Both the position numbers and the translations under genes were made by a program. The notes under the pieces are model-generated. The model was given only the letters and a program-made list of their open reading frames with translations. It was not told where the DNA came from and did not search any database. A DNA stretch of 64,000 nt from positions 1-64,000 of the IMG/VR virus record IMGVR_UViG_3300045988_128110; one strand, given 5' to 3'. Below, one piece after another: positions 3,284 to 29,539 of this stretch. How positions within the stretch are numbered: position 1 is the stretch's first letter; each line of letters starts with the position of its first letter. Origin of the DNA: a virus.

Positions 3284-3286
3284 AAT

Positions 3287-3381: not shown

Positions 3382-3396
3382 CTAATTTATATTGGT

Positions 3397-5616: not shown

Positions 5617-5624
5617 ACTCAATA

Positions 5625-6668: not shown

Positions 6669-6669
6669 T

Positions 6670-8154
6670 ATGTTTAAACCTTGTGGAGCTCTACTGACTG
6701 ATTTTTATAAACAATGTCATGCAGAGCAATATGACCCTAGCATCACTAAGGTAGTTTCTTACTATGTACCTCGTAAAACTAGGATTCCTGAATTTGATAA
6801 GGTAGTAGTTTTTGGTATTCAAGCATTTATTGAGGAGTATCTGATTGAATACATGAATGAAACTTTCTTTAGTCGTTCTTTAGAAGAAGTTATTGCAGAA
6901 TATGAATTTGTAATTTCTTCTACTATGGGAGCAGACCGTGTTAATTCGGATAAAATTAAAAAGCTTCATGAGTTAGGATATCTTCCTATCGAGATCTGGG
7001 CACTTCCTGAGGGATATAAAGTAGGAATGAATGTCCCCTGTATCGAGATTTCTAATACTAATCCAGAATTTGCATGGTGTACTAATTTCATTGAAACCTT
7101 GATGCTCTCTGAGCTTTGGTATCCAATGTGTGTTGCAACTGCTGTAACTAAATATCGTAGTATCGTAAATGATTTTTATTCTAAAACTTCTGATATTTCT
7201 GGTCGTTCTGCTATTTCTGAGTTCGGATTTAGAAGTTTAGTTGGACTTCATGGCGCTATTAAAGCTTCATGTGGGTTTTTGCTCTCTTTTAATAAGACTG
7301 CGACTATTCCTGGCATTATATATGCTTCAAAGTATTATCATACCCCAATGTCTGTAGTAGGTGGAGGTATGGCTTCTACTGAGCACTCCGTAATGTGTAG
7401 TTCTGCTGCCATTGATGGGGATGAAAAAGTTATGATTCGACGCCTCCTTACTGAGGTCTACCCTAATGGATCATTCTCTATGGTAAGTGATTCCTATGAT
7501 TACTGGAATATTGTCGATGAAATTCTCCCATCTCTTAAGGAAGAAATTCTCAGTAGAAACGGCACTTTGTATGTTCGTGGTGACTCTGGAGATCCTGTAG
7601 AAATTGTAACTGAGACAGTTTTCTCTCTTTGGGAGACTTTTGGAGGTACTGTCAACTCTAAAGGGTATAAAGTCTTAGATCCTCATGTTCGAGCTTTGTA
7701 TGGTGATGGTATCACTCAGTTACGTGCAAAACAGATTTATCAGATTTTGTACGATACGGGATTCTCTGCAGAAAATGTTGCACTTGGTGCAGGAGGATTT
7801 TCTATGCTTTCTTACATGGACGAGTTTGGAAATGTCGATATGTTCTCTCGTGATACATTTAATGTAGCAATTAAGTGTAGCTATGTAGAACAAACCATTG
7901 ATGGAAAAACTAAATCTATTATGGTTTACAAAGATCCTAAAACAGATTCAGGAATGAAGAAGTCCCATAAAGGATGCTGTGCTGTTTTCTACAACCATGT
8001 AACTGGTGAGTTTGATTGTGATGAGGGTATGACACTGAAAGAAGCTCATAATGAGCCTTTTAATTTACTTCGTCCTATCTTTTCAAATGGAAAAATGAGA
8101 GAGCAAACCACTCTCACAGAAATTCGTAGAACTCTTTGGAACGGAGAATTTTAA
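6670..8154 (+). CDS. nadV: nicotinamide phosphoribosyltransferase (NAMPT/NadV)
   Basis: LLTDFYKQCH N-terminus and the overall length and motifs of type II NAPRT/NAMPT. Confidence 0.75.
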   Translation: MFKPCGALLTDFYKQCHAEQYDPSITKVVSYYVPRKTRIPEFDKVVVFGIQAFIEEYLIEYMNETFFSRSLEEVIAEYEFVISSTMGADRVNSDKIKKLHELGYLPIEIWALPEGYKVGMNVPCIEISNTNPEFAWCTNFIETLMLSELWYPMCVATAVTKYRSIVNDFYSKTSDISGRSAISEFGFRSLVGLHGAIKASCGFLLSFNKTATIPGIIYASKYYHTPMSVVGGGMASTEHSVMCSSAAIDGDEKVMIRRLLTEVYPNGSFSMVSDSYDYWNIVDEILPSLKEEILSRNGTLYVRGDSGDPVEIVTETVFSLWETFGGTVNSKGYKVLDPHVRALYGDGITQLRAKQIYQILYDTGFSAENVALGAGGFSMLSYMDEFGNVDMFSRDTFNVAIKCSYVEQTIDGKTKSIMVYKDPKTDSGMKKSHKGCCAVFYNHVTGEFDCDEGMTLKEAHNEPFNLLRPIFSNGKMREQTTLTEIRRTLWNGEF

Positions 8155-8948
8155 TGGAAAAAGAATATAAAAAAATAATATCCTTCCTTAAGGATTACCA
8201 AACTCACACTAATGCTCGTGGTTATGTTCTGGGCATTAGTGGAGGGAAGGATTCTACTATAGTAGCTAAGCTTCTAGTGGATGCTATAGGAAAAGAAAAT
8301 GTATTAGGTGTTTTAATGCCTGATGGGGAGCAAAAGGATATCAGTGATAGTTTAGAAGTATGCAAATATTTAGATATCAGACATATACTAATAAATATTT
8401 CACATCCTTTTACCTCACTATTGAGTTCTATCGAAAGAACCACTCTAGAAAAATCCATAGATGTAGGAATTCCTAATCTTGTTTCAGATGGTTCCCCAAT
8501 TATAATTTCTGATAAAGCTTTAACTAATATTGCACCTCGCATTCGCATGGCAACTCTATATGCGATTGCTCAGTCTTTGGGTTACGGAGTAGCTGGAACA
8601 GGTAACAAGTCCGAAGCATTTATTGGATGGTGTACAAAATGGGGAGATATGGCTTGTGATATTAATCCAATTGCACACTTGACTTGTACAGAAGTTGTAA
8701 AACTGGGAGACTTCATGGAGTTGCCTTATAATTTAGTTCATAAAGTCCCTGCAGATGGATTAACAGGCAGATCTGATGAAGAAAATTTTGGATTTACTTA
8801 TCAAGAGCTTGATGTTCTCATTGAAAAAATGGAGCGATTAGATCGTACAGGACATCTTACGAGTCCATTTACTGAAATTGAATTACAAATCTTAAAATTA
8901 CATGAAGCTGCGTATCACAAAGATCATGTAATTAAAATACATTATTAA
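8136..8948 (+). CDS. nadE: NH3-dependent NAD+ synthetase (NadE)
   Basis: PP-loop GISGGKDST, then GTGNKSE and TKWGD motifs. Confidence 0.8.
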   Translation: MERRILMEKEYKKIISFLKDYQTHTNARGYVLGISGGKDSTIVAKLLVDAIGKENVLGVLMPDGEQKDISDSLEVCKYLDIRHILINISHPFTSLLSSIERTTLEKSIDVGIPNLVSDGSPIIISDKALTNIAPRIRMATLYAIAQSLGYGVAGTGNKSEAFIGWCTKWGDMACDINPIAHLTCTEVVKLGDFMELPYNLVHKVPADGLTGRSDEENFGFTYQELDVLIEKMERLDRTGHLTSPFTEIELQILKLHEAAYHKDHVIKIHY

Positions 8949-8949
8949 T

Positions 8950-9840
8950 ATGGGAAGCGGATCATGGAGTTCTAGCACATATAAAGCTTTTGCTGATAGC
9001 TATACTAAAAAATCCAGAGAAGAAATCTTTCATCAAAGATCTCTACACGAAGAAATGGATCTTACAAAAAGTAAGACACATATTCGAGAATCTAGAGATT
9101 CTGAGGAACACCCAGAATCTCTTCCAGTTTTCATTGCATTAGATGAAACTGGTTCAATGGGTTCAATTCCTGATAAGATGATCAGGGATTATCTTCCGAA
9201 GTTAATGGATTCTATTATTGATTCTATTGGAGTTAAACACCCTCAAATTCTTTTTATGGGAGTGGGAGATCATGAATGTGATTACTACCCGTGTCAGGTA
9301 GGTCAATTCGAATCTTCAACTGTTGCAATTAATCAGTGTCTCTCTAAAATTTATTTGGAGGGTCGTGGTGGAGGTAATAGTGGAGAATCCTACTTACTTC
9401 CTTGGATTATTGCAGGAAATCATACGTCAATTGATAGTTGGGAAAAGCGAAAGCAAAAAGGATTCCTTTTTACAGTTGGTGATGAACCTACTTTGACAAG
9501 AATAAGTAGGGGAACTTTGGCAGCTCTCACTGGAATGGAGTATGAGCGTGATTATACCTGGCAGGAGGCTTATGAACTTGCCTGTGAGAAATATCATGTG
9601 TTTCATATTCATGTTCGACATGGAAGTGAACATTATGATGAGGTAGTAGCTAAACAAATGAAAGAAATTCTTAGAGAAAACTTTATTGTGTGCAAGCCTG
9701 ATGAAGTTGTAGAAGCCATTTGTGAAGCTATGGGTAAAACTCTAAAAGGTAGCTCTTCAGTAATTGAAGAGATTTCTGCAGAAGGAACTGTAGAAAATAC
9801 AGAATCAAAACCTAATATATTTGACATACATCGACGATAA
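8950..9840 (+). CDS. vWA-domain protein (FIALDETGSMGS)
   Basis: DxTGSM MIDAS motif; a second vWA protein in the window. Confidence 0.45.
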   Translation: MGSGSWSSSTYKAFADSYTKKSREEIFHQRSLHEEMDLTKSKTHIRESRDSEEHPESLPVFIALDETGSMGSIPDKMIRDYLPKLMDSIIDSIGVKHPQILFMGVGDHECDYYPCQVGQFESSTVAINQCLSKIYLEGRGGGNSGESYLLPWIIAGNHTSIDSWEKRKQKGFLFTVGDEPTLTRISRGTLAALTGMEYERDYTWQEAYELACEKYHVFHIHVRHGSEHYDEVVAKQMKEILRENFIVCKPDEVVEAICEAMGKTLKGSSSVIEEISAEGTVENTESKPNIFDIHRR

Positions 9841-10934
9841 TGTATAATATTGTAGTGGGTTGTACGTTTGGCGACGAGGGCAAGGGTCAAGTGACTCATG
9901 CCCTCTGTTGCGACGCTAAAAGAAAACATTTAAAACCTCTAGTTGTTAGATTTTCTGGAGGGCATCAAGCAGGGCACACAGTAGTTACTTCGTCTGGAAC
10001 AATGCATATATTTTCTTGCTTTGGGTCTGGAACATTTGCTAAGGCACCTACTTATTGGACGAAACAATGTGTTATGGATCCACTACAATGGATGCGGGAG
10101 CGAGAGGAGTTAGATTTCCTAGGATGTAATATCCCTATCCAATATTTTGATCCATATGTACAAATAACAACTCCTTTTGATGTAATGTTGAATTCTGAAA
10201 GGGGTAAAGGTTCTACAGTAGGGAAAGGAATATGGGAGACTATTCAGAGACAAAGAGAAGGATTAGCTTTATATGTAAAAGATTTAGCTTTTCCTCAAGT
10301 TGTAAAAATGAAGCTCCGATTAATTAGAGAATGGGCGGAAGATAGACTCCAGTTTAAGGAAACTTATTCAAGATTTGCTCATGTTTTCGATAACTTAGAT
10401 TCTTTAGTACATACTTATTGTAAGATTTTTTATCCCAATATAGTATTGGAGGATACGTTATCTAAATTAGCATGGAAAGAAAAGACTTCTGTGATATTTG
10501 AGGGTTCTCAAGGAGTACTTTTGGACCCTAATATTGGATTTTCACATGAATATACTACCCCACTTCCATGTTGTCCATCGTGGAACAATCTCCCATTCTT
10601 TTTAACTGATGATCAACTAATATTTAATTTTGTATATAGATCTTATTTAACAAGACATGGTAAAGGGCCTGTTGGAGATTCTATATTTAAGGAGATTAAT
10701 AACCCTTATGAAACAAATTTAAATAATCCTTTTCAAGGAGAATTTCAAACTTATGAATTCAATAAGGAATTAGTCTTATATGGAATTGATCATGTTAAAT
10801 CACACTTTAATCCTGAATATAAAGTAAGGTTGATTGAAACATGTTGTGACATATGTGTAGGACATGACTTAGGAATTCCTTATAATTACTCTATCAAAAC
10901 CTGCAAAAAGAATTTTGACTCTGTATGCAAATAA
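9840..10934 (+). CDS. purA: adenylosuccinate synthetase-like protein (PurA family)
   Basis: GDEGKGQ P-loop and a SGGHQAGHT motif, matching the PurA GDEGKGK / GGHNAGHT signatures. Confidence 0.6.
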   Translation: MYNIVVGCTFGDEGKGQVTHALCCDAKRKHLKPLVVRFSGGHQAGHTVVTSSGTMHIFSCFGSGTFAKAPTYWTKQCVMDPLQWMREREELDFLGCNIPIQYFDPYVQITTPFDVMLNSERGKGSTVGKGIWETIQRQREGLALYVKDLAFPQVVKMKLRLIREWAEDRLQFKETYSRFAHVFDNLDSLVHTYCKIFYPNIVLEDTLSKLAWKEKTSVIFEGSQGVLLDPNIGFSHEYTTPLPCCPSWNNLPFFLTDDQLIFNFVYRSYLTRHGKGPVGDSIFKEINNPYETNLNNPFQGEFQTYEFNKELVLYGIDHVKSHFNPEYKVRLIETCCDICVGHDLGIPYNYSIKTCKKNFDSVCK

Positions 10935-11731
10935 TTAACTTTTTATACCCAGAAAAGTCAGAAATAAAGTATCGAATTGATACTTATCCTGATTCCCAAT
11001 CCCATCTTGTACTTGAGTCTGAAATGGATAGACGAAAGTCCCTGCTGATCTATACTAGATTATCCAATTTGAATGATATTTGGATTCTAATGCAATTAGC
11101 GGATATTTGTCATCGTCAAGGTATCCAGATTTCCTATCTACAAATAGCTTATTTGTTTGCAGCGCGAACTGATAGATTATTTTCTTTTAATGAGGCATTA
11201 GATTTGGAGCTTGTTAAAAAATGTCTTATCTTTGTACAAGCACAGCAAATTCTAGTACTGGATCCTCATTCTAAGCGTTTGATTACAGAAGGGGTAATTG
11301 ATAATGACTGGCCTGCATTCTTTGCTTTAAAACCAGGTTCTAATATTCCAGAGAATGTTTTATTCCCTGACGAAGGTGCCTATCATCGTTACAGTGAGCT
11401 TTTTGACTTTGATACGACATACTATGCTACAAAGCATAGGATTTCAAGAGATAAGTTAGAGGTAAAATTACCTTCTAGAATAAAGCCAAATACTTCTATT
11501 CTAGTTTTTGATGACTTATGTGATGGTGGAGGAACTTTCTTTGCAATTTATAAAGCATTACAAGACATGGGAGTAACTGATGTGCATTTACGTGTCACAC
11601 ATGCTATCCAAAAAGAACCTTTAGTAAAGTTGTCAGAACTTTACAAAACAATAACAATTACCAATTCTTATAAGGATTGGGATAAAGAAGAACTTCCAAA
11701 CAATATAAAAGTAATAAAAGTTTATGAATAA
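10925..11731 (+). CDS. prs: phosphoribosyltransferase-domain protein, probably ribose-phosphate pyrophosphokinase (PRPP synthetase)-like
   Basis: VFDDLCDGGGTF PRPP-binding motif; sits next to nadV as in phage NAD salvage cassettes. Confidence 0.5.
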   Translation: MQIINFLYPEKSEIKYRIDTYPDSQSHLVLESEMDRRKSLLIYTRLSNLNDIWILMQLADICHRQGIQISYLQIAYLFAARTDRLFSFNEALDLELVKKCLIFVQAQQILVLDPHSKRLITEGVIDNDWPAFFALKPGSNIPENVLFPDEGAYHRYSELFDFDTTYYATKHRISRDKLEVKLPSRIKPNTSILVFDDLCDGGGTFFAIYKALQDMGVTDVHLRVTHAIQKEPLVKLSELYKTITITNSYKDWDKEELPNNIKVIKVYE

Positions 11732-12074
11732 ATTTAATGAAATTCTGAGTGCTACTGGAACTGCAGTACTCAAGAAACGTGCTGAAATCATCAATGCTGA
11801 TGCCCGCGAAGCAGCTAAGGATCAGGTTAATCTCATTGAGAAAGAGATTCGTCAGATTAAGTCCAAGATTATGAATCTGGAGGATCTGTCGATTAAATCG
11901 ACCGAATCACTGGTTGTAGGTACGGACTTTAAGGCAGATGAGTGGGTAACTCAGATGTTCAAGCTTCGTGATGACCTGCGCAACGCTGAAATCTGTCTGG
12001 AAATTGCTCAGAATATTTATAATGAGTATTTCACAGAACTTCCTGAAGTAGACTGTGATAAGAAAGCAGAATAG
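11724..12074 (+). CDS. hypothetical coiled-coil protein (116 aa), GC-richer codon usage
   Basis: Complete ORF followed directly by a strong terminator. Confidence 0.4.
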   Translation: MNKFNEILSATGTAVLKKRAEIINADAREAAKDQVNLIEKEIRQIKSKIMNLEDLSIKSTESLVVGTDFKADEWVTQMFKLRDDLRNAEICLEIAQNIYNEYFTELPEVDCDKKAE

Positions 12075-12080
12075 CTTTAC

Positions 12081-12102
12081 AGGCGGAGTAAATCCGCCTT
12101 TT
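12081..12102 (+). terminator. rho-independent terminator (aggcgga-gtaaa-tccgcct followed by TTTT)
   Basis: 7-bp GC-rich stem plus a T run, 7 nt after the stop codon. Confidence 0.75.
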
Positions 12103-12174
12103 GGTTCTATAGTTTAATTGGAAAAATTTTAGAATACGAATCTAAAGATGAGAGTTCGAATCTTTCTAGAACCT
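12103..12174 (+). tRNA. tRNA-Arg (anticodon ACG)
   Basis: Acceptor ggttcta/tagaacc, anticodon arm ttaga-atacgaa-tctaa, T-arm gagag-ttcgaat-ctttc; no CCA. Confidence 0.8.
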
Positions 12175-12191
12175 CAAATATTATTAATGCT

Positions 12192-12512
12192 ATGAAAACA
12201 AATTCTTTTTTTGTTGTTTATTATAATAATGGGGAATTAAAAAAATATGATATAATTCCTTACTTAGTTGATAAGTATGAATCTTTGTCTAGAAAAAATC
12301 GTCCAAATCTTAGACTTTATAACTCGGTGAAGGAATTTATTGTTAAAGAATGCCGTTATCAATTTTGGTCTCGATGTGAGTATGAAATTATTATATCTTC
12401 ATGGCCTAATGAGATCAATAAGAAAAAGATAGATGTTTATGATCAGATAGTACTAAATATTGATATTATTACTAAAATATTAACCTCCTATCTTACTATG
12501 TTAGGTTATTAA
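12192..12512 (+). CDS. hypothetical protein (106 aa)
   Basis: Complete ORF between two tRNA genes. Confidence 0.35.
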   Translation: MKTNSFFVVYYNNGELKKYDIIPYLVDKYESLSRKNRPNLRLYNSVKEFIVKECRYQFWSRCEYEIIISSWPNEINKKKIDVYDQIVLNIDIITKILTSYLTMLGY

Positions 12513-12520
12513 TTTATTTT

Positions 12521-12594
12521 AGGGAGTTGGCGCAATTGGTTAGCGCAGGAATCTTATACATTCAAGGTTATGAGTTCGAGTCTCATATTCCCTA
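12521..12594 (+). tRNA. tRNA-Ile (anticodon UAU, reads AUA)
   Basis: Acceptor agggagt/attccct, D-arm gcgc-aattggtta-gcgc, anticodon loop cttatac, T-arm atgag-ttcgagt-ctcat. Confidence 0.65.
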
Positions 12595-12787
12595 CCTATG
12601 AAAACTGTTTTATATAGAATACAATCAATTGAAGCTCCCGAAGGAGAGGGGTTTCGATATAATTCATTAAGAACATTATCTGATACAAAAGTGAATGAAG
12701 AAATGTGCTTAAGGAATGAATTTGGAGATCATTATTTAATTAATGATCCTGATTACTGAATTTGTGAGATTTTAAAGGAAATAGAAG

Positions 12788-13849
12788 ATGATGTATAGTT
12801 TAGATGAAATAGGTATTTTACCTAGTTCAAAAGCCACGGATATTACAAGTCGTAGTGAGTGTAGTCCTTTAGGAGACTTAGGAACATATCCTATTTTCGT
12901 TTCTCCTATGACATCCGTTATTGATGAATCAAATTATCAATTTTTTACAAAGGCTAATGTTCTTCCAATTATTCCAAGACGTGTAGATAATTTACAGTTT
13001 AGACTTAATGCATGTAACCATGTTTGGTGTGCCTTTAGTTTAAAGGAATTTGAAATGTACTTTTGTGAAGGAGAAGTCTCTGATGAATGTCCTTTAGTAC
13101 TTATTGATCTGGCTAATGGTCATATGAAGAAAATTTATGATTTAGTTAAAAAAGCTAAAGAAAGATGGAGTACTATTATCATAATGGTTGGAAATATCGC
13201 ACACCCAGATATTTATTGGGAATGTTGTGACGCAGGAGTAGATTATGTTCGTGTAGGTATTGGAACAGGTAGTGTATGTACTACAGGTGTAAAAACTGGA
13301 ATACATGCTTCGATGGAATGGTTACTACGAAAGTTATCCACCTGTAAGACACTAATTAATGCTTCTCCTAAACCTATGAAAGCTCCTAAAATTATTGCAG
13401 ATGGAGGCATTTCTACAATAGATAGAGCTATAAAGTGTTTAGCTTTAGGTGCTGATTATGTTATGATGGGCAAAATGTTTGCACAATGTGAGGAGGCTTG
13501 CGGGCAAACTCGGACAAAAGGACTAGATGATAATCCTGAGACGCTTAGATATTTTATGTCTCTAACTAAAGCAGACAGAGAACGAGTTATTGGACTGTAC
13601 CCCAAAGAAAGACTATACTACGGAATGGCAAGTGAACGTGGTCAAAAGGACATTTCTGATACTAAAAAGGCTGAAGAAGGAATCAAGATTTGGGTTCCTG
13701 TTGAATGTACTCTTGAGTCTTTACTTTCTCAATTTGATTCCGCATTAAGATCTGCTATGTCTTATACTGGATGTAGAACTCTTCAAGAGTTTAAGAATGT
13801 AGAATGGGAATATATGTCTCCTTCTGAAAGAAATGCTTATTACAAATAA
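12788..13849 (+). CDS. IMP dehydrogenase/GMP reductase family protein
   Basis: GIGTGSVCTTG catalytic-loop motif (compare GIGPGSICTT) and a TIM-barrel layout. Confidence 0.65.
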   Translation: MMYSLDEIGILPSSKATDITSRSECSPLGDLGTYPIFVSPMTSVIDESNYQFFTKANVLPIIPRRVDNLQFRLNACNHVWCAFSLKEFEMYFCEGEVSDECPLVLIDLANGHMKKIYDLVKKAKERWSTIIIMVGNIAHPDIYWECCDAGVDYVRVGIGTGSVCTTGVKTGIHASMEWLLRKLSTCKTLINASPKPMKAPKIIADGGISTIDRAIKCLALGADYVMMGKMFAQCEEACGQTRTKGLDDNPETLRYFMSLTKADRERVIGLYPKERLYYGMASERGQKDISDTKKAEEGIKIWVPVECTLESLLSQFDSALRSAMSYTGCRTLQEFKNVEWEYMSPSERNAYYK

Positions 13850-14027
13850 AATGAATAATCTTGGTTTATACACAGTAATAGTTTTTGGAATCTTTGTTTT
13901 ATGTTTATTATTAGGACTTGGATTTGCATTAACTATGTGGTCTGCTCCTTGGGGAATATTCTACTTTGGAGGAATGATCGTACTTACTATTTATTATCTT
14001 AATATATTAAAAGATAGAATAGAGTAA
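13833..14027 (+). CDS. small membrane protein (64 aa)
   Basis: Two hydrophobic helices. Confidence 0.3.
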   Translation: MLITNKMNNLGLYTVIVFGIFVLCLLLGLGFALTMWSAPWGIFYFGGMIVLTIYYLNILKDRIE

Positions 14028-14037
14028 TTAAAGGTTT

Positions 14038-14122
14038 GCGGAGGTGACCAGAATGGATAATGGACCAGTCTTCTAAACTGGCGGCTGAATAGTCATTGTG
14101 GGTTCGAGTCCCACCCTCCGTA
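14038..14122 (+). tRNA. class II (long variable arm) tRNA with anticodon UCU (nominally Arg, AGA) and discriminator A73
   Basis: Acceptor gcggagg/cctccgt, anticodon arm ccagt-cttctaa-actgg, a 16-nt variable region with a ggct/agtc hairpin, T-arm gtggg-ttcgagt-cccac; 85 nt. Confidence 0.55.
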
Positions 14123-14138
14123 CTAATAACATTATAAT

Positions 14139-14513
14139 ATGGCATGGATATATAGAGATAAAAATGGAGACCTAATGTTCTCCAAAGTAAAACCTGAAAA
14201 AGTTTATATTTTCAGGTTTAAAAATTGTGAAATTCATAAAGAATCAGAAAGTACATGGTCTCCATTTCTGGACTACAACCATATTATAACAGCTAGGATA
14301 CCTGAAAGTTATTTTGAAACTCCTGGTTATTATGAAGTGAATGATTATGGAGATGACAATGTGCTTAGAAAGGTTTATAAAAATGAATGTGTTTTTGAAG
14401 GAGACTACACTATGGGTTTTCCTGTAGAATTTAAACCTGAGACTATTTCTGCTTTAAAACCTATTGTTGATTTAGAAAATCTTACTATTGAGGATGGATT
14501 AATTGAACTATAA
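14139..14513 (+). CDS. hypothetical protein (124 aa)
   Basis: Complete ORF. Confidence 0.35.
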   Translation: MAWIYRDKNGDLMFSKVKPEKVYIFRFKNCEIHKESESTWSPFLDYNHIITARIPESYFETPGYYEVNDYGDDNVLRKVYKNECVFEGDYTMGFPVEFKPETISALKPIVDLENLTIEDGLIEL

Positions 14514-14776
14514 TGAAAGAGATTAAAATTAACAATAACATTGAAGAAGATCATGTTCCTTTATATAATCCTGAAGGTAAGTTAGTTGGAATTATAGAAA
14601 ATGAACTAGCTTTTAATGATGTTCGTATTCAAATCATGGAAAACAAACTAAGAGGGTACTATATTGTATATAAAGGTCAGGTATGTCGAATAGATATTCA
14701 TGGAGAATTAGATATTTGGCCTAATGACTTATATAGGACAAATGTAGACCAACTATCAAAATTATTATGCTTTTAG
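14513..14776 (+). CDS. hypothetical protein (87 aa)
   Basis: Complete ORF with an ATGA start/stop overlap. Confidence 0.35.
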   Translation: MKEIKINNNIEEDHVPLYNPEGKLVGIIENELAFNDVRIQIMENKLRGYYIVYKGQVCRIDIHGELDIWPNDLYRTNVDQLSKLLCF

Positions 14777-14777
14777 T

Positions 14778-14966
14778 ATGAAACAAATAAAAACATACTG
14801 TCCAAATTGTGGTAGGGAAACTATTCATGTTATTTATACAGAAGATGGATATGGGGCTTCTGGTGTAGCAAGAATTTTTTCAAGTTTACTTTCCCTTGGA
14901 ACGTCTAATTTAGCTTGTACTACATACAGTAAATGTATTAGTTGTGGAAAGACTAAAGAATTATAA
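14778..14966 (+). CDS. small zinc-ribbon protein (CPNCG...CISCG)
   Basis: Two CxxC pairs. Confidence 0.35.
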   Translation: MKQIKTYCPNCGRETIHVIYTEDGYGASGVARIFSSLLSLGTSNLACTTYSKCISCGKTKEL

Positions 14967-15231
14967 AATGATTAATGACCAAATTAAAAAGTTAGCTAAT
15001 AAAAAGATTCCATTATATAATAACTCTTCTAGTTTATATGATATTTTGGATTGGCTACGGGAGAAAAAATTCCTACATGTAGAGATACAATGGTATCCTC
15101 ATGGTTGGATGTTTGTTATTTATAAAATTGATTCTCAAGAGGATGAACCATATGATACTTTCTCTGAAGTATATACTAGTTATCTAGATTGTTTAGAAGC
15201 TGGAATTATAAGAGCATTAAATCTTATATAG
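14944..15231 (+). CDS. hypothetical protein (95 aa)
   Basis: Complete ORF. Confidence 0.3.
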   Translation: MERLKNYKMINDQIKKLANKKIPLYNNSSSLYDILDWLREKKFLHVEIQWYPHGWMFVIYKIDSQEDEPYDTFSEVYTSYLDCLEAGIIRALNLI

Positions 15232-15421
15232 TAAGTTAAAGTACAATGACAAAATGAGAATACAAGGAAGATACTTTTACTCCATATCAAGGTGAGGATT
15301 TTATTGATTGGCTAAATTTACACGGAGATCAAGGATGGGAACTTATACAAGAAGTTGTTATACCTCAATTTGCACCTTTATATAAATACCTCTGTATATT
15401 TAAAAGAAAAATTCAGGAATA

Positions 15422-15853
15422 ATGAGAACACTTCTTTGGGTAGATGATGCTCGTAATCCAATGGAAGATGATTGGATGAATTTTAGTCCAATTGGTAGAA
15501 ATTGTAAAGTAATATGGGCTCAATCTTACCAAGAAGCAATTGATTTTCTTGAGAAAGAATGGCCTGATGCAATTTGTCTAGATCATGATTTAGGGGAAGA
15601 GAAATCTGGATATGATATAGCTAAGTATATTGTGGATCGGTGTATTGATGAGGGTAAAAAACTTCCTGAGTTTGCTAGTCAGTCTGCTAATCCTGTTGGA
15701 AGGGAAAATATTATTACATTATTGAGCAATTATAAGAGACATGAACTTCTAGATCATATTCAAAAAGTTATTGATTATAAACATGATTGGCGGAAAGCAG
15801 TACAAGAAGGAAAAAGTTTGCCAAAATGGAATGGAAAAATTAAAGTCAATTAA
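15422..15853 (+). CDS. hypothetical protein, possibly a CheY-like receiver-fold domain (LLWVDD ... LDHDLG)
   Basis: Acidic N-terminal DD pair and an LDxD motif at about residue 55, as in receiver domains; weak. Confidence 0.3.
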   Translation: MRTLLWVDDARNPMEDDWMNFSPIGRNCKVIWAQSYQEAIDFLEKEWPDAICLDHDLGEEKSGYDIAKYIVDRCIDEGKKLPEFASQSANPVGRENIITLLSNYKRHELLDHIQKVIDYKHDWRKAVQEGKSLPKWNGKIKVN

Positions 15854-15856
15854 TTT

Positions 15857-16069
15857 ATGACACAGTATATTTATATACATACAAACAAATTTTCTAGGTG
15901 GTTCCTTTTAAGATATCTTAAAAAGAAAGGTTATACTTTTAGAAATAACATGACTCAGGAGCATATTTTTATTCATCCTTATGGCAGATATGCTTTTTGC
16001 ATGTGTGAGAAAATCATAGCTTATGAGGAAGTATGGGCTTGGGTTGTTTTTAACAGTATATTTAAATAA
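15857..16069 (+). CDS. hypothetical protein (70 aa)
   Basis: Complete ORF. Confidence 0.3.
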   Translation: MTQYIYIHTNKFSRWFLLRYLKKKGYTFRNNMTQEHIFIHPYGRYAFCMCEKIIAYEEVWAWVVFNSIFK

Positions 16070-16198
16070 TTTTAACAATGCTTTACTGTAATATATGTGG
16101 ATCTCCTTTACGATATATAGGAGAAACTAAGGATGCTAATGGAAATGTTATAAGCATCTATTCGTGTCCAAAATGTAACAAGCTAGTTTATATTTAGT

Positions 16199-16579
16199 AT
16201 GTTCTTTCTTAATTTAGCTGTATTAATTTTTTGTGGAGCAGTTCTTGGATATGAAAGACAAAAAACTAACAAGGTAATTGGAATTCGTTCCGTTGTTCTA
16301 CTGATGTTAGGATCTTTTATATTTACATATATCTCTACAAGAATAGGTGGAGACCCTTCTAGAGTAGCTGCCCAGATAGCTTCTGGAGTTGGCTTTATTG
16401 GTGCTGGAATCATTTGGAAGGACAAATCCACTAATATAGCTAACTTAACAACAGCAATTCTCATTTGGGTTATTGCAGCTCTAGGAAGTATGATTTCTAT
16501 TGGATTACTTGCTGAAGCAATAGTAATAACAGGAATAATTTACATTGTCCTTAGATTTAATTTTTTAAAGGACGTCTAA
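16199..16579 (+). CDS. mgtC: MgtC/SapB-family membrane protein
   Basis: GYERQ, a following GIRS motif, ASGVGFIGAG, NLTTA..IW..AA.G; these match the MgtC N-terminal domain signatures. Confidence 0.65.
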   Translation: MFFLNLAVLIFCGAVLGYERQKTNKVIGIRSVVLLMLGSFIFTYISTRIGGDPSRVAAQIASGVGFIGAGIIWKDKSTNIANLTTAILIWVIAALGSMISIGLLAEAIVITGIIYIVLRFNFLKDV

Positions 16580-16585
16580 AGGTTT

Positions 16586-16670
16586 GGAGAGTAATCCTTG
16601 ATGGTGATAGGGCTTGCCTGCTAAGCAATGTGTGCCTTTCTGGCATGTGGTTCGATTCCACTGCTCTCCG
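16586..16670 (+). tRNA. tRNA-Ser (anticodon GCU), class II
   Basis: Acceptor ggagagt/gctctcc, discriminator G, anticodon loop ctgctaa, long variable arm (tgcc/ggca), T-arm with ttcgatt. Confidence 0.7.
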
Positions 16671-16694
16671 CAAATAAATTAATATTAAAAGGAT

Positions 16695-16889
16695 ATGGAA
16701 TTTAAAGTAATCAGAATCACTTTTGATAACGGAACAGAACAGGTTTTTAATTTTCAACATGTAAGAGATTTCAGTTATAATGAAAAAAATAAATCTGCAA
16801 CTATAACTATAAAAGGAAACGGACCAAATTGGGATACTCAGATATTTACTAATAATATTACTGAATTATATGTTTCGAATCTAGAGTAA
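16695..16889 (+). CDS. hypothetical protein (64 aa)
   Basis: Complete ORF between tRNA genes. Confidence 0.3.
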   Translation: MEFKVIRITFDNGTEQVFNFQHVRDFSYNEKNKSATITIKGNGPNWDTQIFTNNITELYVSNLE

Positions 16890-16897
16890 TTAAGAAT

Positions 16898-16980
16898 GCC
16901 TCTGTGGTGGAATTGGTAGACACGTGTGCCTTAGGAGCACATGGACCTAGTCCATGCAGGTTCGAGTCCTGTCAGGGGTA
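16898..16980 (+). tRNA. tRNA-Leu (anticodon UAG), class II
   Basis: Acceptor gcctctg/caggggt, D-arm gtg-gaattggtaga-cac, anticodon arm tgtgc-cttagga-gcaca, variable arm tggac-cta-gtcca, discriminator A. Confidence 0.7.
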
Positions 16981-17007
16981 CTTAATAATATTTAAAACTA
17001 ATATAAA

Positions 17008-17592
17008 ATGAATATTGAAAATTTTTCAACGGCAAATCTTCCTGGTCTAGCAGACCTAGGAGATACTAAAAATTGAGCGAGTATTAAAGGGGATGATCCA
17101 GGGCCTAAAGGGCCTATAGGTACTGCGGGATGTTCAGCAACAGGTGTAGGCAGTGGAAATCTTACTTCTACTACCTCAAATTGATACATCCCTTCAACTG
17201 GAATCTATACTAATAATATCATTGTAGGCTCTAGTAATCCGTATGCATATGGAACAATTAAAACAGAAAGACTTCCTATGAGTGAAGAACTTTATTTATA
17301 TATAACTGGAGGTAAATCCTGTATTTCTACAGCACCTCCTACTTGGAATAGTCAGGAGAACTGTCTTTGGCATGCAAAAGGTTCCCGAGTACTTTCTATA
17401 GAAGGTGATTATGGACTATCTCGTCTTATAAAATCTTATATTGGTTCTGAATTAGATATAATTTACACATATCTTACTATAAATGGATTTAATGTTTATG
17501 CTACTATTTTAGGGCCTTCTGGAGAACTATTTGTAGAAAAGGCACCTATTAAAGGTAAAGAGGATCTAATTCATAGAAATCGAAAGAAATAA
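17008..17592 (+). CDS. hypothetical protein with a short collagen-like Gly-X-Y repeat (KGDDPGPKGPIGTAG); two in-frame TGA codons
   Basis: ATG at 17008 lies in frame with tracked ORF 17278-17592 through two TGAs (90 codons upstream, counted); the minus-strand ORF 16998-17189 is a shadow. Confidence 0.45.
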
Positions 17593-17603
17593 TAGAAAGA
17601 ATT

Positions 17604-17693
17604 GCGCCTGACCCGAGGCGGGGGGGAGGTCTTCAAAACCTCTATGCTGTTGGTCCATCTTCAGCCCTGTGGGATCGTTACCTACCAGGCGTG
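17604..17693 (+). tRNA. candidate TGA suppressor tRNA (anticodon UCA) with an atypical 90-nt architecture (long variable region, short D-region, A54/U58-swapped T-loop, discriminator G)
   Basis: Acceptor gcgcctg/caggcgt (7 bp incl. one GU), anticodon arm (g)gaggt-cttcaaa-acctc(t) with UCA at 17633-17635, T-arm gtggg-atcgtta-cctac, 25-nt variable region; no standard 76-nt tRNA can be fitted. Confidence 0.5.
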
Positions 17694-17709
17694 CAAATAA
17701 GAAGTAAAT

Positions 17710-18294
17710 ATGACTATTAAGGAACAATGTATACATTTACGGGAAGAAGGAAAAACTTATAACGAAATTTGTACTATTCTACACTGTTCTAAAAGTACAG
17801 TTGCATATCATTTGAATACGACTACTAAGATAGCAGCTACAAAATGACAAAGCGAAAACAAATGTAAGGATTGAAAGTACAAATTTATGCATAGTTGTTC
17901 CAACTTTCTAAATCGAAGAGATAGATCTAAACATATCAGAACAATGTGTTCAGATTGAAATAAAAAGTTTAGAACTCACGTATCAGAGTTCAATAATAGA
18001 TATAAAAACAAAGGAAATTTGGCTAATAAATGTTATTACAAGGATGTGTTAACATATCTTAATGGAACTAATGTTAAATGTTATTTAACAGGTACACCTA
18101 TTGATTTGACAAAAGATGATTATTGTTTTGATCATATAGTTCCTGTATCAAAAGGAGGAACTAATGAATTATCAAATCTAGGAGTAACTATTCCCTCAGC
18201 TAATTATTCTAAACATGATTTAACTATAGAGGAATATTTGTCTTTATGTAAACAGGTTTTAGAACACCATGGGTATACTGTAAGTAAAACTTAA
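17710..18294 (+). CDS. HNH homing endonuclease with an N-terminal helix-turn-helix; three in-frame TGA codons
   Basis: HTH GKTYNEICTILHCSKSTVAYHL; HNH motif CYLTG...DHIVPVSKGG...N; ATG at 17710 is in frame with tracked ORF 18019-18294 (103 codons, counted). Confidence 0.65.
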
Positions 18295-18298
18295 AGAT

Positions 18299-18802
18299 AT
18301 GACTTATAAACAAATTTTTATTGGAGGGATTACTATTCTGGGTATGTATATGCTACTGGGTTTGATGTTAAATTTCCCATGTAAATCAGAAGTGCCTCCA
18401 GTAAACTCTCCTGTAATTATTACAGAAGATTGTGATTCTCTTACAGAGTGGCAAGTTTTTATCATGGCACTTGTTGAAGTAGAATGTGAGAGAAATCCAA
18501 AAGTAAAATCTAGTAAAAATGCAATAGGCCCATTCCAAATCACTAAAATTTATGTTGATGAAGTTAATAACTTATATAACACTAGTTTTGTGTTAGAAGA
18601 TGCTTGGGATCTTGATAAAGCTTTAACTATGTTCGAAATGATGAATGACCATTATAATCCAACTAGAGATATTGATAGAGCAATTAAACTACATAATCCT
18701 GGGGCTGGTAAATGGTATGGGAAAAGAATAAAAGATCGTATGGAACTAATTCGATTTAGTGAAGCACTAAGATTCAAAATTGTTGAACTTTACGATAATT
18801 AA
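18299..18802 (+). CDS. lytic transglycosylase (SLT-domain) endolysin with an N-terminal signal-anchor
   Basis: N-terminal TM helix, then VECERNPK...SKNAIGPFQI, matching the SLT E...GLMQ(I) catalytic motif. Confidence 0.55.
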   Translation: MTYKQIFIGGITILGMYMLLGLMLNFPCKSEVPPVNSPVIITEDCDSLTEWQVFIMALVEVECERNPKVKSSKNAIGPFQITKIYVDEVNNLYNTSFVLEDAWDLDKALTMFEMMNDHYNPTRDIDRAIKLHNPGAGKWYGKRIKDRMELIRFSEALRFKIVELYDN

Positions 18803-18803
18803 T

Positions 18804-18905
18804 ATGTGGTGGTTGATTGGATTACTATTAGCTATTGCTATCATACTTAGTCCTATGTTATGGGCTATTTATAAACATATAACGTATGAGAAGTTGAATA
18901 ACTAA
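18804..18905 (+). CDS. small membrane protein (33 aa), possibly a holin- or antiholin-like lysis cassette component
   Basis: MWWLIGLLLAIAIILSPMLWAIYKH, a single TM helix directly after the endolysin. Confidence 0.3.
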   Translation: MWWLIGLLLAIAIILSPMLWAIYKHITYEKLNN

Positions 18906-19497
18906 AATTTTAAGTGGAGTTGCAATTATTTTAGGAATAACTGTTTACTTCATGAATGTAAGGATAAATGATTTAAATAAATCATTAGACATATCCGTTA
19001 ATAATGAAAAAGCATACTCGGCTGAAAATTCAGCTTTAAAGGAAAGTAATATAGTTTTCAAATCTGAGTTAGCTCAAATGACCCACATGAATGATTCAAT
19101 TCTTGTGAAAATGCGAGAAGTAGCCCAAGAACTCAAAATAAAGGATAAGAAATTAGAATCTTTACAATATCAGTTAGAACATATTTCTAAGTCAGATACT
19201 ATTTTTATTAGAGATACTATATTTAAAGATCCTGGTTTTAAACTTGATACGTGTATTCAAGATAAATGGGCTAAAACTTGTCTACATCTTGAATATCCAA
19301 ATGAAGTAGGAGTGTCAAGCGAGTTTAACAATGAAAAGTATATTATTACTTCTTGGAAAAAAGAACCAATTAAGCAAAGGAAGTGGTTCCTTCCAAGATG
19401 GTTTACGAAAAAACAAAAAATTGTAACTGTTGACGTAGTAGATAAGAATCCTTATGTAACTACAGAAAGACAGAGATTTGTACAAATTGTAGATTAA
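18886..19497 (+). CDS. i-spanin-like protein (N-terminal TM helix plus periplasmic coiled coil); one in-frame TGA
   Basis: MRSWITKILSGVAIILGITVYF precedes the tracked ORF 18952-19497 in frame via a TGA (22 codons); the remainder is coiled-coil rich. Confidence 0.4.
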
Positions 19498-19764
19498 ATG
19501 ATTACAACAATACCTACAAAATATGATATAGGGCAGAAAGTATATTTAAAGAAAACTGCTCTTGACTTTTCTCGAGGATATTTCATTGATGTTGAAGTTC
19601 CAGATCCAACTCCTTACATAATTACATCTATTAGAATTCATGTATATCCTGATTATACAAGTATTTATTACCGTATCGATGGAAAACAGGAATCTATTAG
19701 GGAGGATAAAGTATTTAGTTCTTTAGAAGAGGTAGAAGCCCATTGTAAGCATGATTCAGAATAG
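19498..19764 (+). CDS. hypothetical protein (88 aa)
   Basis: Complete ORF; TAAATG junction. Confidence 0.35.
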   Translation: MITTIPTKYDIGQKVYLKKTALDFSRGYFIDVEVPDPTPYIITSIRIHVYPDYTSIYYRIDGKQESIREDKVFSSLEEVEAHCKHDSE

Positions 19765-20245
19765 CTTTTTGGAAAAAGGTAAAGAGAAAGAATTAGAATT
19801 TGCCTTAGCTCTTTGCAAAGCTAAAAGTCTTTCGTCCTCTATAATAGAAGAAGCTAGCAAGGAAGATGACATTTATCGTCATATTGATATCTGGGTAGGA
19901 GCAAATAGTTTCGATGTTAAAGCTGCAAAGAAAACTAACCGCTCTGATTTACTTCCTAATTATGATATTCATTGGATAGAACTTAGAAACGTTCATGGAG
20001 ACAAAGGTTGGCTATTCGGGCAGGCTGATTATATAGCCTTTGAGTTGGGAACTACTTGGTGCATCTGTCCAAGAATTTCTTTAATACGGTCTCTAAAGGG
20101 CAGAATTGATTTTTCCAATTTTACTACTAATAGAGATGATATGTTTAGAGTATATAGACGTAAAGATAGATTAGATGCTATTGTTAAAGTCGATAGTGAT
20201 TTTTTGACCAAGGTTACGTCTAGTTTTTTAATTCCTAAAGAATAG
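19751..20245 (+). CDS. hypothetical protein (164 aa); terminates at TAG
   Basis: Complete ORF; the TAG stop is followed 3 nt later by the next ATG, which argues that TAG is a genuine stop. Confidence 0.35.
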   Translation: MIQNSFLEKGKEKELEFALALCKAKSLSSSIIEEASKEDDIYRHIDIWVGANSFDVKAAKKTNRSDLLPNYDIHWIELRNVHGDKGWLFGQADYIAFELGTTWCICPRISLIRSLKGRIDFSNFTTNRDDMFRVYRRKDRLDAIVKVDSDFLTKVTSSFLIPKE

Positions 20246-20248
20246 ACT

Positions 20249-20431
20249 ATGATTTTCTCTTTAGTGTATTACTTGATTTGTGCAGGTATTATTTTTGGTT
20301 CTGATGACGGAAAACCTTGGAAGTTTTCAGATTATATACTTTTATTGTTTGCAGGTATTTATGCTCCTTTAAGTGTAGGAGTTTATATTGGTAAACATTT
20401 AAGGGAACACAAGGTATATAAGGAGGATTAA
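20249..20431 (+). CDS. small membrane protein (60 aa)
   Basis: Two hydrophobic helices; followed by an aggagg/cctcct hairpin. Confidence 0.3.
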   Translation: MIFSLVYYLICAGIIFGSDDGKPWKFSDYILLLFAGIYAPLSVGVYIGKHLREHKVYKED

Positions 20432-20441
20432 CCTCCTATAT

Positions 20442-20517
20442 GGTGTATATAGCTCAGTTGGTTTAGAGCGCCAGATTGTGGCTCTGGAGGTCACCGATTC
20501 GAATTCGGTTATACACC
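20442..20517 (+). tRNA. tRNA-His (anticodon GUG) with encoded G-1
   Basis: G-1 plus acceptor gtgtata/tatacac, discriminator C, canonical D-arm tagctcagttggtttagagc, anticodon loop ttgtggc, T-arm accga-ttcgaat-tcggt. Confidence 0.85.
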
Positions 20518-20531
20518 CTAAAATATGAATT

Positions 20532-28319: not shown

Positions 28320-29539
28320 TGGACAAAACTCAACGTCAACGATTAGGCGTTCAAAAATGAATTAATAATAAAGGAAATGGGATTTGGGTTTGAAGTACTG
28401 GTGTTGGTAAATCATTTGGAGCTTTAATGGCTTGTGTGAAATTACTAAAAATTAGACCAGATGCTAAAATTCTAATTTCTGTACCTACAACAATTCTCAA
28501 GGAACAATGACTAAGGGACGTAGCTAAAACTAAATTCTTTGGAAATGTTACTGTTGAGGTTATTAATTCTATTTTAAAAAAATCTTGAGAAGTTGATTTT
28601 CTAATAATTGATGAGCTTCATACTGCGGTATCGGAGCAGTCGATAAAAATATTTGATCAAGTTAAATATGATTTCTTTCTGGGGCTTACAGCTACTTTAG
28701 AAAGACTTGATGGAAGAGAGGAATTACTATCTTTATATACTAAAGTAATCGATGTCATTACAACTGAAGAAGCAATAAAAAATGGATGATTATCGCCATT
28801 TAGGTATTACAAAGTTCTTGTGGAGGTTGATGACATGGATACTTATTATGTAATGAACCAAAAGTTTAATTCAGTCTTTGCGTTCTTTAATTTTGATTTC
28901 AATTCTGCAATGAAATGTGCAACTAATTGAAAGTTCCGTAATAATTATGCTTATAAGATGGGATATGATAGAAAGCAGGTTTTAAATGCTGCTATGGCGT
29001 GGATGCAATTAATGCAGAAGCGCAAAAAATTTGTTATGTCTCACCCTAAAAAGTTTGAAATAGCGAAAAAAATTATAGAAGCAAGAAAAGATAAAAAAAT
29101 TATTACTTTTTCAGCCACTATTAAGGATGCGGAATCTTTAAAAGTTGGATATACTCTTCATAGCAAAAAGAAAAAACAAGAAAACTCAGAAACTATTGCA
29201 TTGTTTAAGTCTCAATCTTCAGGGGTTCTTAATACATCTAAAGCAGCTAATGCAGGATTAGATTGCCCTGATATAAATTGTGAGATTAGAATTAGTGGAA
29301 CTAGTTCTGGAATTGATGCAAGGCAGATTTTGGGAAGGGGATTGCGTTATGTTAATAATAAGATAACTGAAGTTTTTACTTTGGTTGTTAAAGGCACTAA
29401 CGAAGAATCCTGGTTTAATAAGGCCCATCAAGGAATTTCATATATTACTATCACTGAAGATCAACTTGACTTAGTTTTAAAAGGAGAAGAAGTAATCACA
29501 AGAAAACGAGATGATGTAATTACTAACTATAGATTTTAA
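28319..29539 (+). CDS. SF2 DEAD/DEAH-box-like DNA/RNA helicase with seven in-frame TGA codons
   Basis: Walker A STGVGKS, LKEQW (TGA at the conserved QW), IIDELH (DExH), TAT, a GWL(S)P motif, QILGRGLRY (motif VI); TAATG overlap with the upstream gene. Confidence 0.8.

Follow-up and report, generated by a model that had tools for sequence, protein, structure and literature searches.

The stretch of DNA analysed here, referred to throughout as the window, comprises positions 1 to 64,000 of the virus record IMGVR_UViG_3300045988_128110 in IMG/VR, part of a phage genome of about 170 kb. It carries on its plus strand a 90-nt gene for a tRNA with the anticodon UCA, complementary to the stop codon UGA (Table 1). 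The RNA can be drawn as a cloverleaf of four canonical helices and an extra arm, with a 7-nt anticodon loop, U33 and a purine at position 37. A8 follows the acceptor strand, the discriminator base is G73 (position 17693), and the CCA end is not encoded, the 3′ flank being CAAAU. The UCA anticodon occupies positions 17633-17635. The variable region is 25 nt long (17644-17668) and the GCUG/CAGC stem of the extra arm is its sole solid pairing; the loop closed by this stem contains the motif U-CCA at 17654-17657. A T arm identical to that of the window gene was also found in other phage tRNAs (Trp, Lys, Phe and Asn). A first-pass annotation made from the letters alone had described this 90-nt structure, with a 7-bp acceptor, a compressed D arm, a 25-nt variable region, the T loop ATCGTTA and discriminator G, and all of these are in the sequence. 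The extension of the anticodon stem to 6 bp beneath the loop cttcaaa is likewise present, with one G·U pair.

Table 1. Positions of the tRNA(UCA) gene, its structural elements and the other features referred to in the text (window coordinates unless a contig is named)
Feature	Position	Strand	Remarks
tRNA(UCA) gene, 90 nt to discriminator G	17604..17693	+	ARAGORN, minimum free energy cloverleaf, covariance model, conservation in ~30 contigs
Acceptor stem, 5′ strand GCGCCUG	17604..17610	+	pairs with CAGGCGU 17686-17692; G1·U72
Miniature D arm CCCG-AGG-CGGG, 4 bp + 3-nt loop	17612..17622	+	
Anticodon arm, GGAGGU/ACCUCU 6-bp stem (one G·U), loop CUUCAAA	17625..17643	+	
Extra ('variable') arm, GCUG/CAGC stem, 12-nt loop UUGGUCCAUCUU	17646..17665	+	
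T arm GUGGG-AUCGUUA-CCUAC	17669..17685	+	A54/U58 replaces T54/A58
Superfamily-2 helicase gene, test case	28322..29539	+	6 in-frame TGA after start
Mini-D tRNA-Trp(CCA) genes	L031 ~5551-5632; L030 ~260-330; L020 ~590-660		D arm e.g. GCUG-AGG-CAGC
Upstream open reading frame, 194 amino acids, no Pfam match	17008..17592	+	2 in-frame TGA; first of the run of TGA-bearing genes
Downstream open reading frame, N-terminal HTH and HNH-like nuclease motif	17710..18294	+	3 in-frame TGA, no TGG
tRNA island	12103..20518	+	Arg(ACG) 12103-12175; Ile(UAU) 12521-12596; Arg(UCU) 14038-14123
tRNA island, continued			Ser(GCU) 16586-16671; Leu(UAG) 16898-16981; UCA 17604-17693; His(GUG) 20443-20518

ARAGORN calls the locus as tRNA-SeC(tca). 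It calls no second UCA tRNA, canonical or otherwise, within the 64-kb window, in agreement with the earlier statement that this is the only UCA anticodon. CM R1, a covariance model derived from related phage tRNAs, gave a full-length match at the site with a score of 31.5 bits; ordinary tRNAs receive similar scores from this model, and family membership is not proven by it. A scan for promoters and terminators gave background levels only. Taken alone, without comparison to other contigs, the locus is marginal.

The use of UGA in the window was determined from its open reading frames (ORFs). When TGA is translated as sense, there are 59 in-frame TGA codons against 230 TGG, the TGA codons being distributed over 27 of the 78 ORFs. 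The TGA-bearing genes begin at 17008, beside the tRNA, with one exception upstream. TGA sense codons are thus present as the first-pass annotation had claimed, but its word 'pervasive' overstates them, given these counts and their near-restriction to the part past 17000. The helicase gene (Table 1) served as a test case. At three of its columns, TGA in the window corresponds to tryptophan in 116 of 116, 120 of 120 and 120 of 120 homologues. As the homologues were themselves translated from recoded relatives, the DNA of the relatives was checked, and TGA and TGG were found to exchange at the same columns in both directions (window, L043 and L046; numbers of this kind denote the contigs compared). 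Invariant tryptophan columns, together with the exchange of TGA with TGG, therefore indicate that UGA stands for tryptophan, so that tryptophan is the amino acid most likely inserted, as had been argued before. When PolA and DNA ligase were compared with PDB chains, their TGA sites fell in variable columns and were uninformative on the meaning of the codon.

The distribution of TGA along the window is uneven. The first 17 kb are nearly TGA-free (one ORF) and hold the genes for an SPFH protein, nicotinamide phosphoribosyltransferase (NAMPT), NAD synthase, adenylosuccinate synthetase and an IMPDH/GMP-reductase. After 17 kb TGA is common, including in the replication genes for helicase, DnaB, primase, ligase and PolA, and the genes are all on the plus strand. 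The tRNA is located at the boundary between the TGA-poor and TGA-rich parts (1-17000 and 17000-64000). With the window helicase as query, tblastn returned only unannotated 'Bacteriophage sp.' records at 36-39% identity, and megablast of positions 8000-32000 against GenBank phages gave no match. An affiliation with the Zeta-crAss-like phages, which are alike in size, GC content and opal recoding, was considered and was not established.

Exact-pattern scans recovered the same or nearly the same tRNA, which we call type A, from about 30 independent contigs, most of them 120-177 kb long and several from human-gut assemblies. Only three sequence variants occur among them. In the second variant (L007, L008 and L122) a G-C pair of the anticodon stem is replaced by A-U, a compensatory change, and in the third (L044 and L132) the D stem CCCG/CGGG becomes CUCA/UGAG, equivalent to two compensatory pairs. 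The loops of the third variant also differ: in L044 the D loop AGG is AAG, and the T loop AUCGUUA is GGCGGUA. The D loop (17615-17617) and T loop (17674-17680) of the window are thus changed jointly relative to L044 (~2541-2630). This joint change may reflect a covarying 18-55 tertiary contact (G18·U55 to A18·G55), with G19-C56 retained. Judged from these comparisons, the type-A tRNA is a real gene under selection. The homologues that the first-pass annotation had wished to see sought in other phages therefore exist, and conservation in about 30 contigs with compensatory changes bears out its proposal of a genuine candidate UGA suppressor. Over their central 46 nt, type-A copies agree completely (100% identity) even where the helicases of the phages share only 47% identity, suggesting that the tRNA cassette has moved horizontally. 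When genome contigs were scanned, at least two tRNA-like matches were obtained, in a contig of a Phoenicibacter metagenome-assembled genome and in a contig of a Parabacteroides goldsteinii bin; no firm host inference follows from these.

One type-A allele is interrupted. In L027 (contig IMGVR_UViG_3300045988_154597, 9888-10577, minus strand) a 600-nt insert splits the gene between U34 and C35. A U precedes the insert, G is its last base, and both tRNA exons are intact. The insert encodes a 163-amino-acid PD-(D/E)XK endonuclease (PF11645, E = 1.5e-10) with an in-frame TGA at codon 4. It probably represents a group I intron that carries a homing endonuclease, located at the classic anticodon-loop site of tRNA introns. 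As the Rfam group I intron model RF00028 gave no match to the insert, we infer this assignment from the site, the U and G at the boundaries and the PF11645 match, and also from what we take to be IC3 core motifs in the insert. The tRNA-Leu(UAG) gene of the same contig (~11187-12106, minus strand) is also split after U34, the exons …CCAGACTT and AGGATCTGG… enclosing an insert that runs from AAAAATAAAG to TATG. The 3′ part of this second insert (GUGUAGAGACUAUACACCUACCUCCUAAGUCGAAAGAUAUGG) presumably resembles the 3′ core of the IC3 group I intron in Azoarcus tRNA-Ile.

The body of the tRNA was compared with those of other phage tRNAs. It is shared with unusual tRNA-Trp(CCA) genes in L031, L030 and L020, which have a miniature D arm, the T loop AUCGUUA and G73. 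The D arm has the form NNNN-AGG-NNNN in L031 and L030, and the D loop of L020 is UAGGA (5 nt). L031 and L030 also have G1·U72, as in the window, and the acceptor stem of L031 is that of the window tRNA except for pair 3-70. None of the three is called by ARAGORN, and Rfam gave no match to L031 or L030, the two on which it was run. The three genes appear to constitute an undescribed class of mini-D-arm tRNA-Trp(CCA) that shares the body of the window suppressor. As had been noted before, a simple CCA-to-UCA point change in a standard tRNA-Trp does not account for the window tRNA.

The major identity elements for tryptophanyl-tRNA synthetase (TrpRS) are G73 and the anticodon CCA; in Bacillus subtilis they also include G2-C71, G3-C70 and G4-C69, with A1-U72 and G5-C68 as minor elements (PMC2965240, PMC9976931). 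The window tRNA has G73, and its acceptor pairs G1·U72, C2-G71, G3-C70, C4-G69 and C5-G68 provide part of the B. subtilis set. It lacks C34-C35-A36 in the decoding anticodon, which is UCA, and U-CCA is found only in the loop of the extra arm. Membership of the type II tRNAs (Ser, Leu and Tyr) is not indicated by the UCA anticodon: serine is excluded by the tryptophan codon columns, and G73 argues against leucine and tyrosine identity (PMC9976931).

A second form of tRNA(UCA), type B, was found in the same genomic position. L043, whose helicase is 47% identical to that of the window, and L044 are 95-97% identical in the regions flanking the tRNA, and a single intergenic slot holds type B in L043 (2731-2824) and type A in L044 (2541-2630). 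As judged from this shared slot, the two types are functionally interchangeable. L044 has, relative to L043, two additional small ORFs next to the tRNA. The L043 tRNA has A1-U72, G73, the D arm GUGU-AAUGGUA-GCAC and the T loop UUCGAGU, and is a textbook tRNA-Trp apart from its extra arm. The latter is a second hairpin following the UCA arm, GGAG(C)-CUCCAAA-(A)CUCC, which corresponds to the CCA anticodon arm of tRNA-Trp.

To see how general this arrangement is, contigs were scanned for sequence patterns. The pattern CTTCAAA..CTCCAAA..GTTCGA gave 57 matches, of which about 27 are tRNAs with both arms (twin-arm tRNAs). An unbiased scan fixed only a Trp-type D arm, UCA, a long gap and the T loop, leaving the loop of the extra arm unspecified. 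It yielded 21 loci, 20 of them tRNAs, and every one of these 20 has an extra hairpin with the loop [C/G]UCCA[A/U]A. The CCA-anticodon version of the long-gap scan found none. With a gap of normal length, at least 120 CCA tRNAs and 6 UCA tRNAs were obtained. The long arm is thus present in 20 of 26 UCA tRNAs and in 0 of at least 120 CCA tRNAs (Fisher p ~1e-19). Reversal of the order of the two arms gave 21 pattern matches, none of them tRNA-like. ORF coverage under codes 11, 4 and 15, a crude measure, indicated clear TGA recoding at about 10 of the type-B loci and was ambiguous at the rest.

For 25 distinct type-B sequences RNAalifold predicted, independently, five helices. In the alignment 98.7% of paired cells can pair, and double changes are seen in 19 of the 25 pairs; these covariation values were reached by 0 of 500 shuffles. 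In the extra arm three of four pairs covary, the outermost counted pair being represented by five pair types. The second hairpin of type B is therefore a covarying stem of 4-8 bp with the loop [C/G]UCCA[A/U]A, and on this comparative evidence it faithfully reproduces the anticodon arm of bacterial tRNA-Trp. The UCA and CCA arms have near-identical loop-proximal stems (xGGU...ACCx), the D and T arms are fully canonical, and all the B. subtilis Trp determinants are present in the acceptor consensus AGGGGCU...G73. RF00005, whose gathering threshold is 29 bits, gives the type-B relatives 56-62 bits. As RF00005 detects them, these tRNAs are probably already in published tRNA lists, without comment.

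Two contigs, L093 and L097 (IMGVR_UViG_3300029911_000248 and 3300028779_000045), have the same twin-arm design on a third type of body, with a differing acceptor stem and D arm and a 4-bp T stem. Their arms are CUUGU-CUUCAAA-ACAAG followed by GGCCCUCU-CUCCAAA-GGAGGGCU. Rfam misses the twin-arm tRNA of L093. The occurrence of the design on different bodies suggests either its spread from one tRNA scaffold to another or more than one origin. Some type-B phages also encode a 77-nt amber (CUA) tRNA that has no extra arm (L086, 138-214; L088, 3898-3974). Three amber tRNA calls were made in the compared loci, representing two distinct sequences, and all are short.

The window tRNA has the topology of the twin-arm tRNAs, with the order D arm, UCA arm, 2 nt, UCCA hairpin, 3 nt and T arm, and with A26 directly abutting the UCA arm. 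CM R1 places its UCCA on the UCCA of the type-B extra-arm loop, and MAFFT places it on the CCA anticodon of the mini-D tRNA-Trp genes. The closest extra-arm loop is that of L108, GUCCAUA, which the window matches in GUCCAU. Homology of the window extra arm to the type-B arm is likely, though not proven, and the arm seems to be a worn copy of a tryptophan (CCA) anticodon arm.

Taking these comparisons together, we consider it probable that the locus is a functional opal suppressor of tryptophan identity, with which a phage of about 170 kb, present in human-gut and other metagenomes, reads in-frame UGA as tryptophan. The twin-arm structure suggests how such a tRNA might be charged. The UCA arm would stack on the D stem and decode UGA on the ribosome. 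The change of C34 to U removes one TrpRS determinant, and the second arm would bring back a CCA loop whose stem is as long as that of an anticodon arm and is attached at the same junction. From the type-II variable-arm position it could offer C34-C35-A36 to the host TrpRS; the CCA arm, G73 and the acceptor pairs would then allow tryptophanylation in a host that uses the standard code. Class Ic synthetases approach the tRNA from the variable-arm side, and bacterial tyrosyl-tRNA synthetase grips a long variable arm. The window copy, with its 4-bp stem and UCCA in a 12-nt loop, would be a degenerate version. More tentatively, we propose that there is a natural class of tRNAs in which a UCA arm decodes a reassigned stop codon and a CCA replica arm is read by the host TrpRS, so that the phage supplies no synthetase. 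The window tRNA would be a degenerate mini-D member of this class and, with type B, might explain part of the suppressors 'missing' from code-4 genomes.

Several observations weigh against these interpretations. At the locus (17500-17800) no Rfam family gave a match, including RF00005 and tRNA-Sec, even at E ≤ 10, and the single-sequence folding energy is ordinary (z = -0.73). ARAGORN fails on the two other type-A variants. Both ARAGORN and covariance models had been proposed in the first-pass annotation as means of checking the tRNA; the former recognised the window copy, the Rfam models did not. The Rfam miss is a measure of departure from the models and no argument against function. As a mimic the window extra arm is poor, with 4 bp, two U·U mismatches and a loop of 6-12 nt in place of a 5-bp stem and a 7-nt loop. 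It is identical in all type-A copies, so that it offers no covariation test. Among the ORFs of the window, which covers 64 kb of the genome of about 170 kb, neither a phage TrpRS nor a phage release factor was seen; the remaining two thirds may encode a TrpRS, RF1 or a tRNA-Trp(CCA). Seryl-tRNA synthetase (SerRS) could also be attracted by a tRNA with a long arm and G73. Finally, six phage tRNA(UCA) genes have a short variable region, and, according to work cited in 10.1101/2021.08.26.457843, E. coli tryptophanylates an opal-suppressor tRNA-Trp that has no extra arm. The existence of short UCA tRNAs and the charging of UCA forms in E. coli mean that the extra arm is not strictly required.

These last points favour an alternative in which the tRNA is a functional tryptophan-inserting opal suppressor and the extra arm is something other than a decoy anticodon for TrpRS. 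It might compensate structurally for the miniature D arm and odd T loop, be left over from a duplication of the anticodon arm, or bind some other partner; candidates are a modification enzyme, a phage protein, a T-box leader, or a host anticodon nuclease for which it would act as decoy. Type A lacks the normal D-loop and T-loop elements. The near-identical loop-proximal stems of the two arms fit a duplication, and the RNA-repair set of the phage (RlaP, RNA ligase, polynucleotide kinase-phosphatase (PNKP) and cREC_REC) suggests pressure from tRNA-cleaving defences. However, type B has canonical D and T arms and keeps the extra arm, so compensation for an odd body is not the general reason for it. 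A neutral relic would not hold U33-C34-C35-A36 invariant while the stem covaries through five pair types. Furthermore, at least 120 CCA tRNAs with the same type of body lack the extra arm, which ties its presence to the loss of C34 and not to the tRNA body. We regard a suppressor whose extra arm is no identity decoy as the less likely reading.

The two arms might also be assigned the other way round, in that the true anticodon arm would be the CCA hairpin and the UCA hairpin would have been inserted between positions 26 and 27. The RNA would then be a UGG-reading tRNA-Trp, or a switch between two conformers. The topology is symmetric, the CCA hairpin is followed by a normal variable loop of 3-5 nt and then the T arm, and MAFFT aligns it with the anticodon of mini-D tRNA-Trp(CCA). 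On the other hand, A26 is immediately next to the UCA arm, the arrangement of normal tRNAs, and UCA always comes first, the reverse order having given no tRNA-like match. The design is found in a context of sense UGA codons, with this tRNA as the sole one that has a UCA anticodon. An arm at 45/46 is in the type-II position, whereas we know of no natural precedent for an arm protruding at 26/27. We consider this assignment improbable.

The first-pass annotation had likened the tRNA to a tRNA-Sec scaffold. Taken further than in that annotation, a Sec-like tRNA of the selC or allo-tRNA type would be recognised by SerRS, by way of its long arm and G73, and would insert selenocysteine or serine. 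It does share with bacterial tRNA-Sec (selC; RF01852) the UCA anticodon, G73, the 6-bp anticodon stem and a long extra arm; the ARAGORN label points the same way, and SerRS recognition relies on the long variable arm and G73 (PMC5389517). However, ARAGORN also tags the otherwise Trp-like L043 tRNA as 'SeC', and the tag is therefore probably driven by the anticodon. The scaffold itself is not that of tRNA-Sec. The acceptor/T branch is 7/5 (7-bp acceptor and 5-bp T stem) and neither 8/5 nor 9/4, the D stem has 4 bp, backed by covariation, and a 3-nt loop, compared with 6 bp and 4 nt in tRNA-Sec, and the tRNA-Sec covariance model gave no match. These features do not support the scaffold claim, and a Trp(CCA)-type body takes its place. 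The usage of UGA points away from selenocysteine as well, since 59 TGA codons in 27 genes, at invariant tryptophan columns and exchanging with TGG, are not the pattern of selenoproteins, in which UGA serves at rare, SECIS-directed sites, and no SelA, SelB or SelD was found among the Pfam-scanned ORFs of the window. Serine at invariant tryptophan sites would be damaging. A Sec-like tRNA is thus very improbable. A decayed pseudogene or chance cloverleaf without function, for which one might cite the Rfam miss, the folding energy and the non-canonical T loop and D arm, is hardly credible for a sequence kept in about 30 contigs, including phages with helicases 47% identical, with three compensatory double changes, with intact exons around the L027 intron, and with a canonical-looking tRNA(UCA) in the same slot of a sister phage.

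The putative suppressor gene lies in a tRNA island and, as had been noted before, beside an HNH-like ORF containing three TGA codons (Table 1). The HNH and HTH Pfam matches of this ORF are weak and mostly below the curated cut-offs (HNH E 6e-5 to 1e-3). Two other tRNAs of the island are also unusual. The 86-nt tRNA-Arg(UCU), which reads the AGA codon and scores 52 bits with RF00005, has a long arm in type-II style (4-bp stem, loop GAAU) and A73; at the same place in the tRNA order, L007, L008 and L036 have an unrelated, ordinary 73-nt tRNA-Arg(UCU). It may be charged by arginyl- or leucyl-tRNA synthetase (ArgRS or LeuRS), and recalls the nematode nev-tRNAs (see below). The tRNA-Ser(GCU), for which ARAGORN gives an 8-bp acceptor and a 4-bp T stem, is missed by Rfam at the gathering threshold and has a close homologue in L007. 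It matches the (8/4) phage tRNA-Ser of Mukai et al. (PMC5389517).

Genes for RNA or tRNA repair are found at 15404-15853, 36907-38007, 52547-53953 and 54422-55360. Their functions comprise a cREC_REC cyclic-phosphate receiver, an RlaP nucleotidyltransferase, an RNA ligase (weak matches) and a polynucleotide kinase-phosphatase. They form a probable RNA/tRNA-repair toolkit, and suggest that the phage faces tRNA-cleaving host defences. An auxiliary metabolic block at 6655-13849, with nicotinamide phosphoribosyltransferase, NAD synthase, adenylosuccinate synthetase and an IMPDH/GMP-reductase-like protein, is concerned with NAD+ salvage and purine interconversion.

The window tRNA resembles the tRNA-Sup-TCA of code-4 gut phages, in that a UCA tRNA occurs in a low-GC gut phage with TGA at tryptophan positions (10.1101/2021.08.26.457843; PMC12386605). 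In those phages, too, recoding is limited to part of the genome and charging is presumably by the host TrpRS. The reported tRNA-Sup-TCA genes are given by anticodon and isotype only, with no extra arm or CCA hairpin described, whereas the window tRNA escapes Rfam and is marginal in ARAGORN. A suppressor was detectable in only ~35% of code-4 genomes, and both Borges et al. and the Zeta-crAss study note that suppressors frequently escape detection and could be of non-canonical form (10.1101/2021.08.26.457843; PMC12386605).

Like the tRNA-Trp(UCA) of Mycoplasma, Spiroplasma and mitochondria, and like laboratory suppressors, the window tRNA combines UCA and G73 with tryptophan at UGA. The code-4 tRNA-Trp(UCA) is a class-I tRNA with a variable loop of 4-5 nt and a TrpRS that tolerates U34, whereas the window tRNA and 20 of the 26 phage UCA tRNAs add a CCA hairpin. 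A long variable arm on a tRNA with a class-I anticodon recalls the nematode nev-tRNAs, in which, as Hamashima et al. reportedly described in 2012, class-I anticodons are carried on a body with a long variable arm, uncoupling identity from decoding. The arm of nev-tRNAs is said to redirect charging to LeuRS and so to change the amino acid, whereas the arm of the window tRNA would keep tryptophan identity.

Allo-tRNAs and selC* tRNA-Cys are non-canonical look-alikes of tRNA-Sec from bacteria and phages, some of them UCA suppressors (PMC5389517). They have an 8/4 or 9/3 branch and serine, alanine or cysteine identity (PMC5389517), in contrast to the 7/5 branch and Trp-type body of the window tRNA. 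Hairpins that copy a cognate anticodon stem-loop are known from the E. coli thrS operator and from yeast aminoacyl-tRNA synthetase mRNAs (PMC9976931). In these mRNAs synthetase binding has been shown and regulates translation; for the window mimic, binding is proposed, and the mimic would lie within a tRNA, beside the decoding anticodon. In the full-text-searchable, non-subscription literature we found no published description of a CCA-bearing extra arm, of the twin-arm design or of a mini-D Trp body.

Phage opal suppressors are already known, and what is new here is a structural variant together with a testable and potentially new identity mechanism. The literature on recoding leaves open how a host synthetase that checks the anticodon charges the suppressor, and why only about one third of TGA-recoded phages show suppressor tRNAs (10.1101/2021.08.26.457843; PMC12386605). 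Some suppressors are invisible to standard models, as exemplified by the window tRNA, which has no Rfam match and two of whose three variants are missed by ARAGORN, and in most of the comparable Trp-type phage UCA tRNAs a conserved second hairpin reproduces the Trp CCA arm. Whether or not the decoy idea is correct, two results hold: a family of tRNAs with five covarying helices that is specific to UGA suppressors, and a class of mini-D tRNA-Trp. If the second arm is indeed a handle for TrpRS, it would represent a new principle of tRNA identity, and would provide a ready-made design for suppressor tRNAs in genetic-code expansion and nonsense-suppression therapy.

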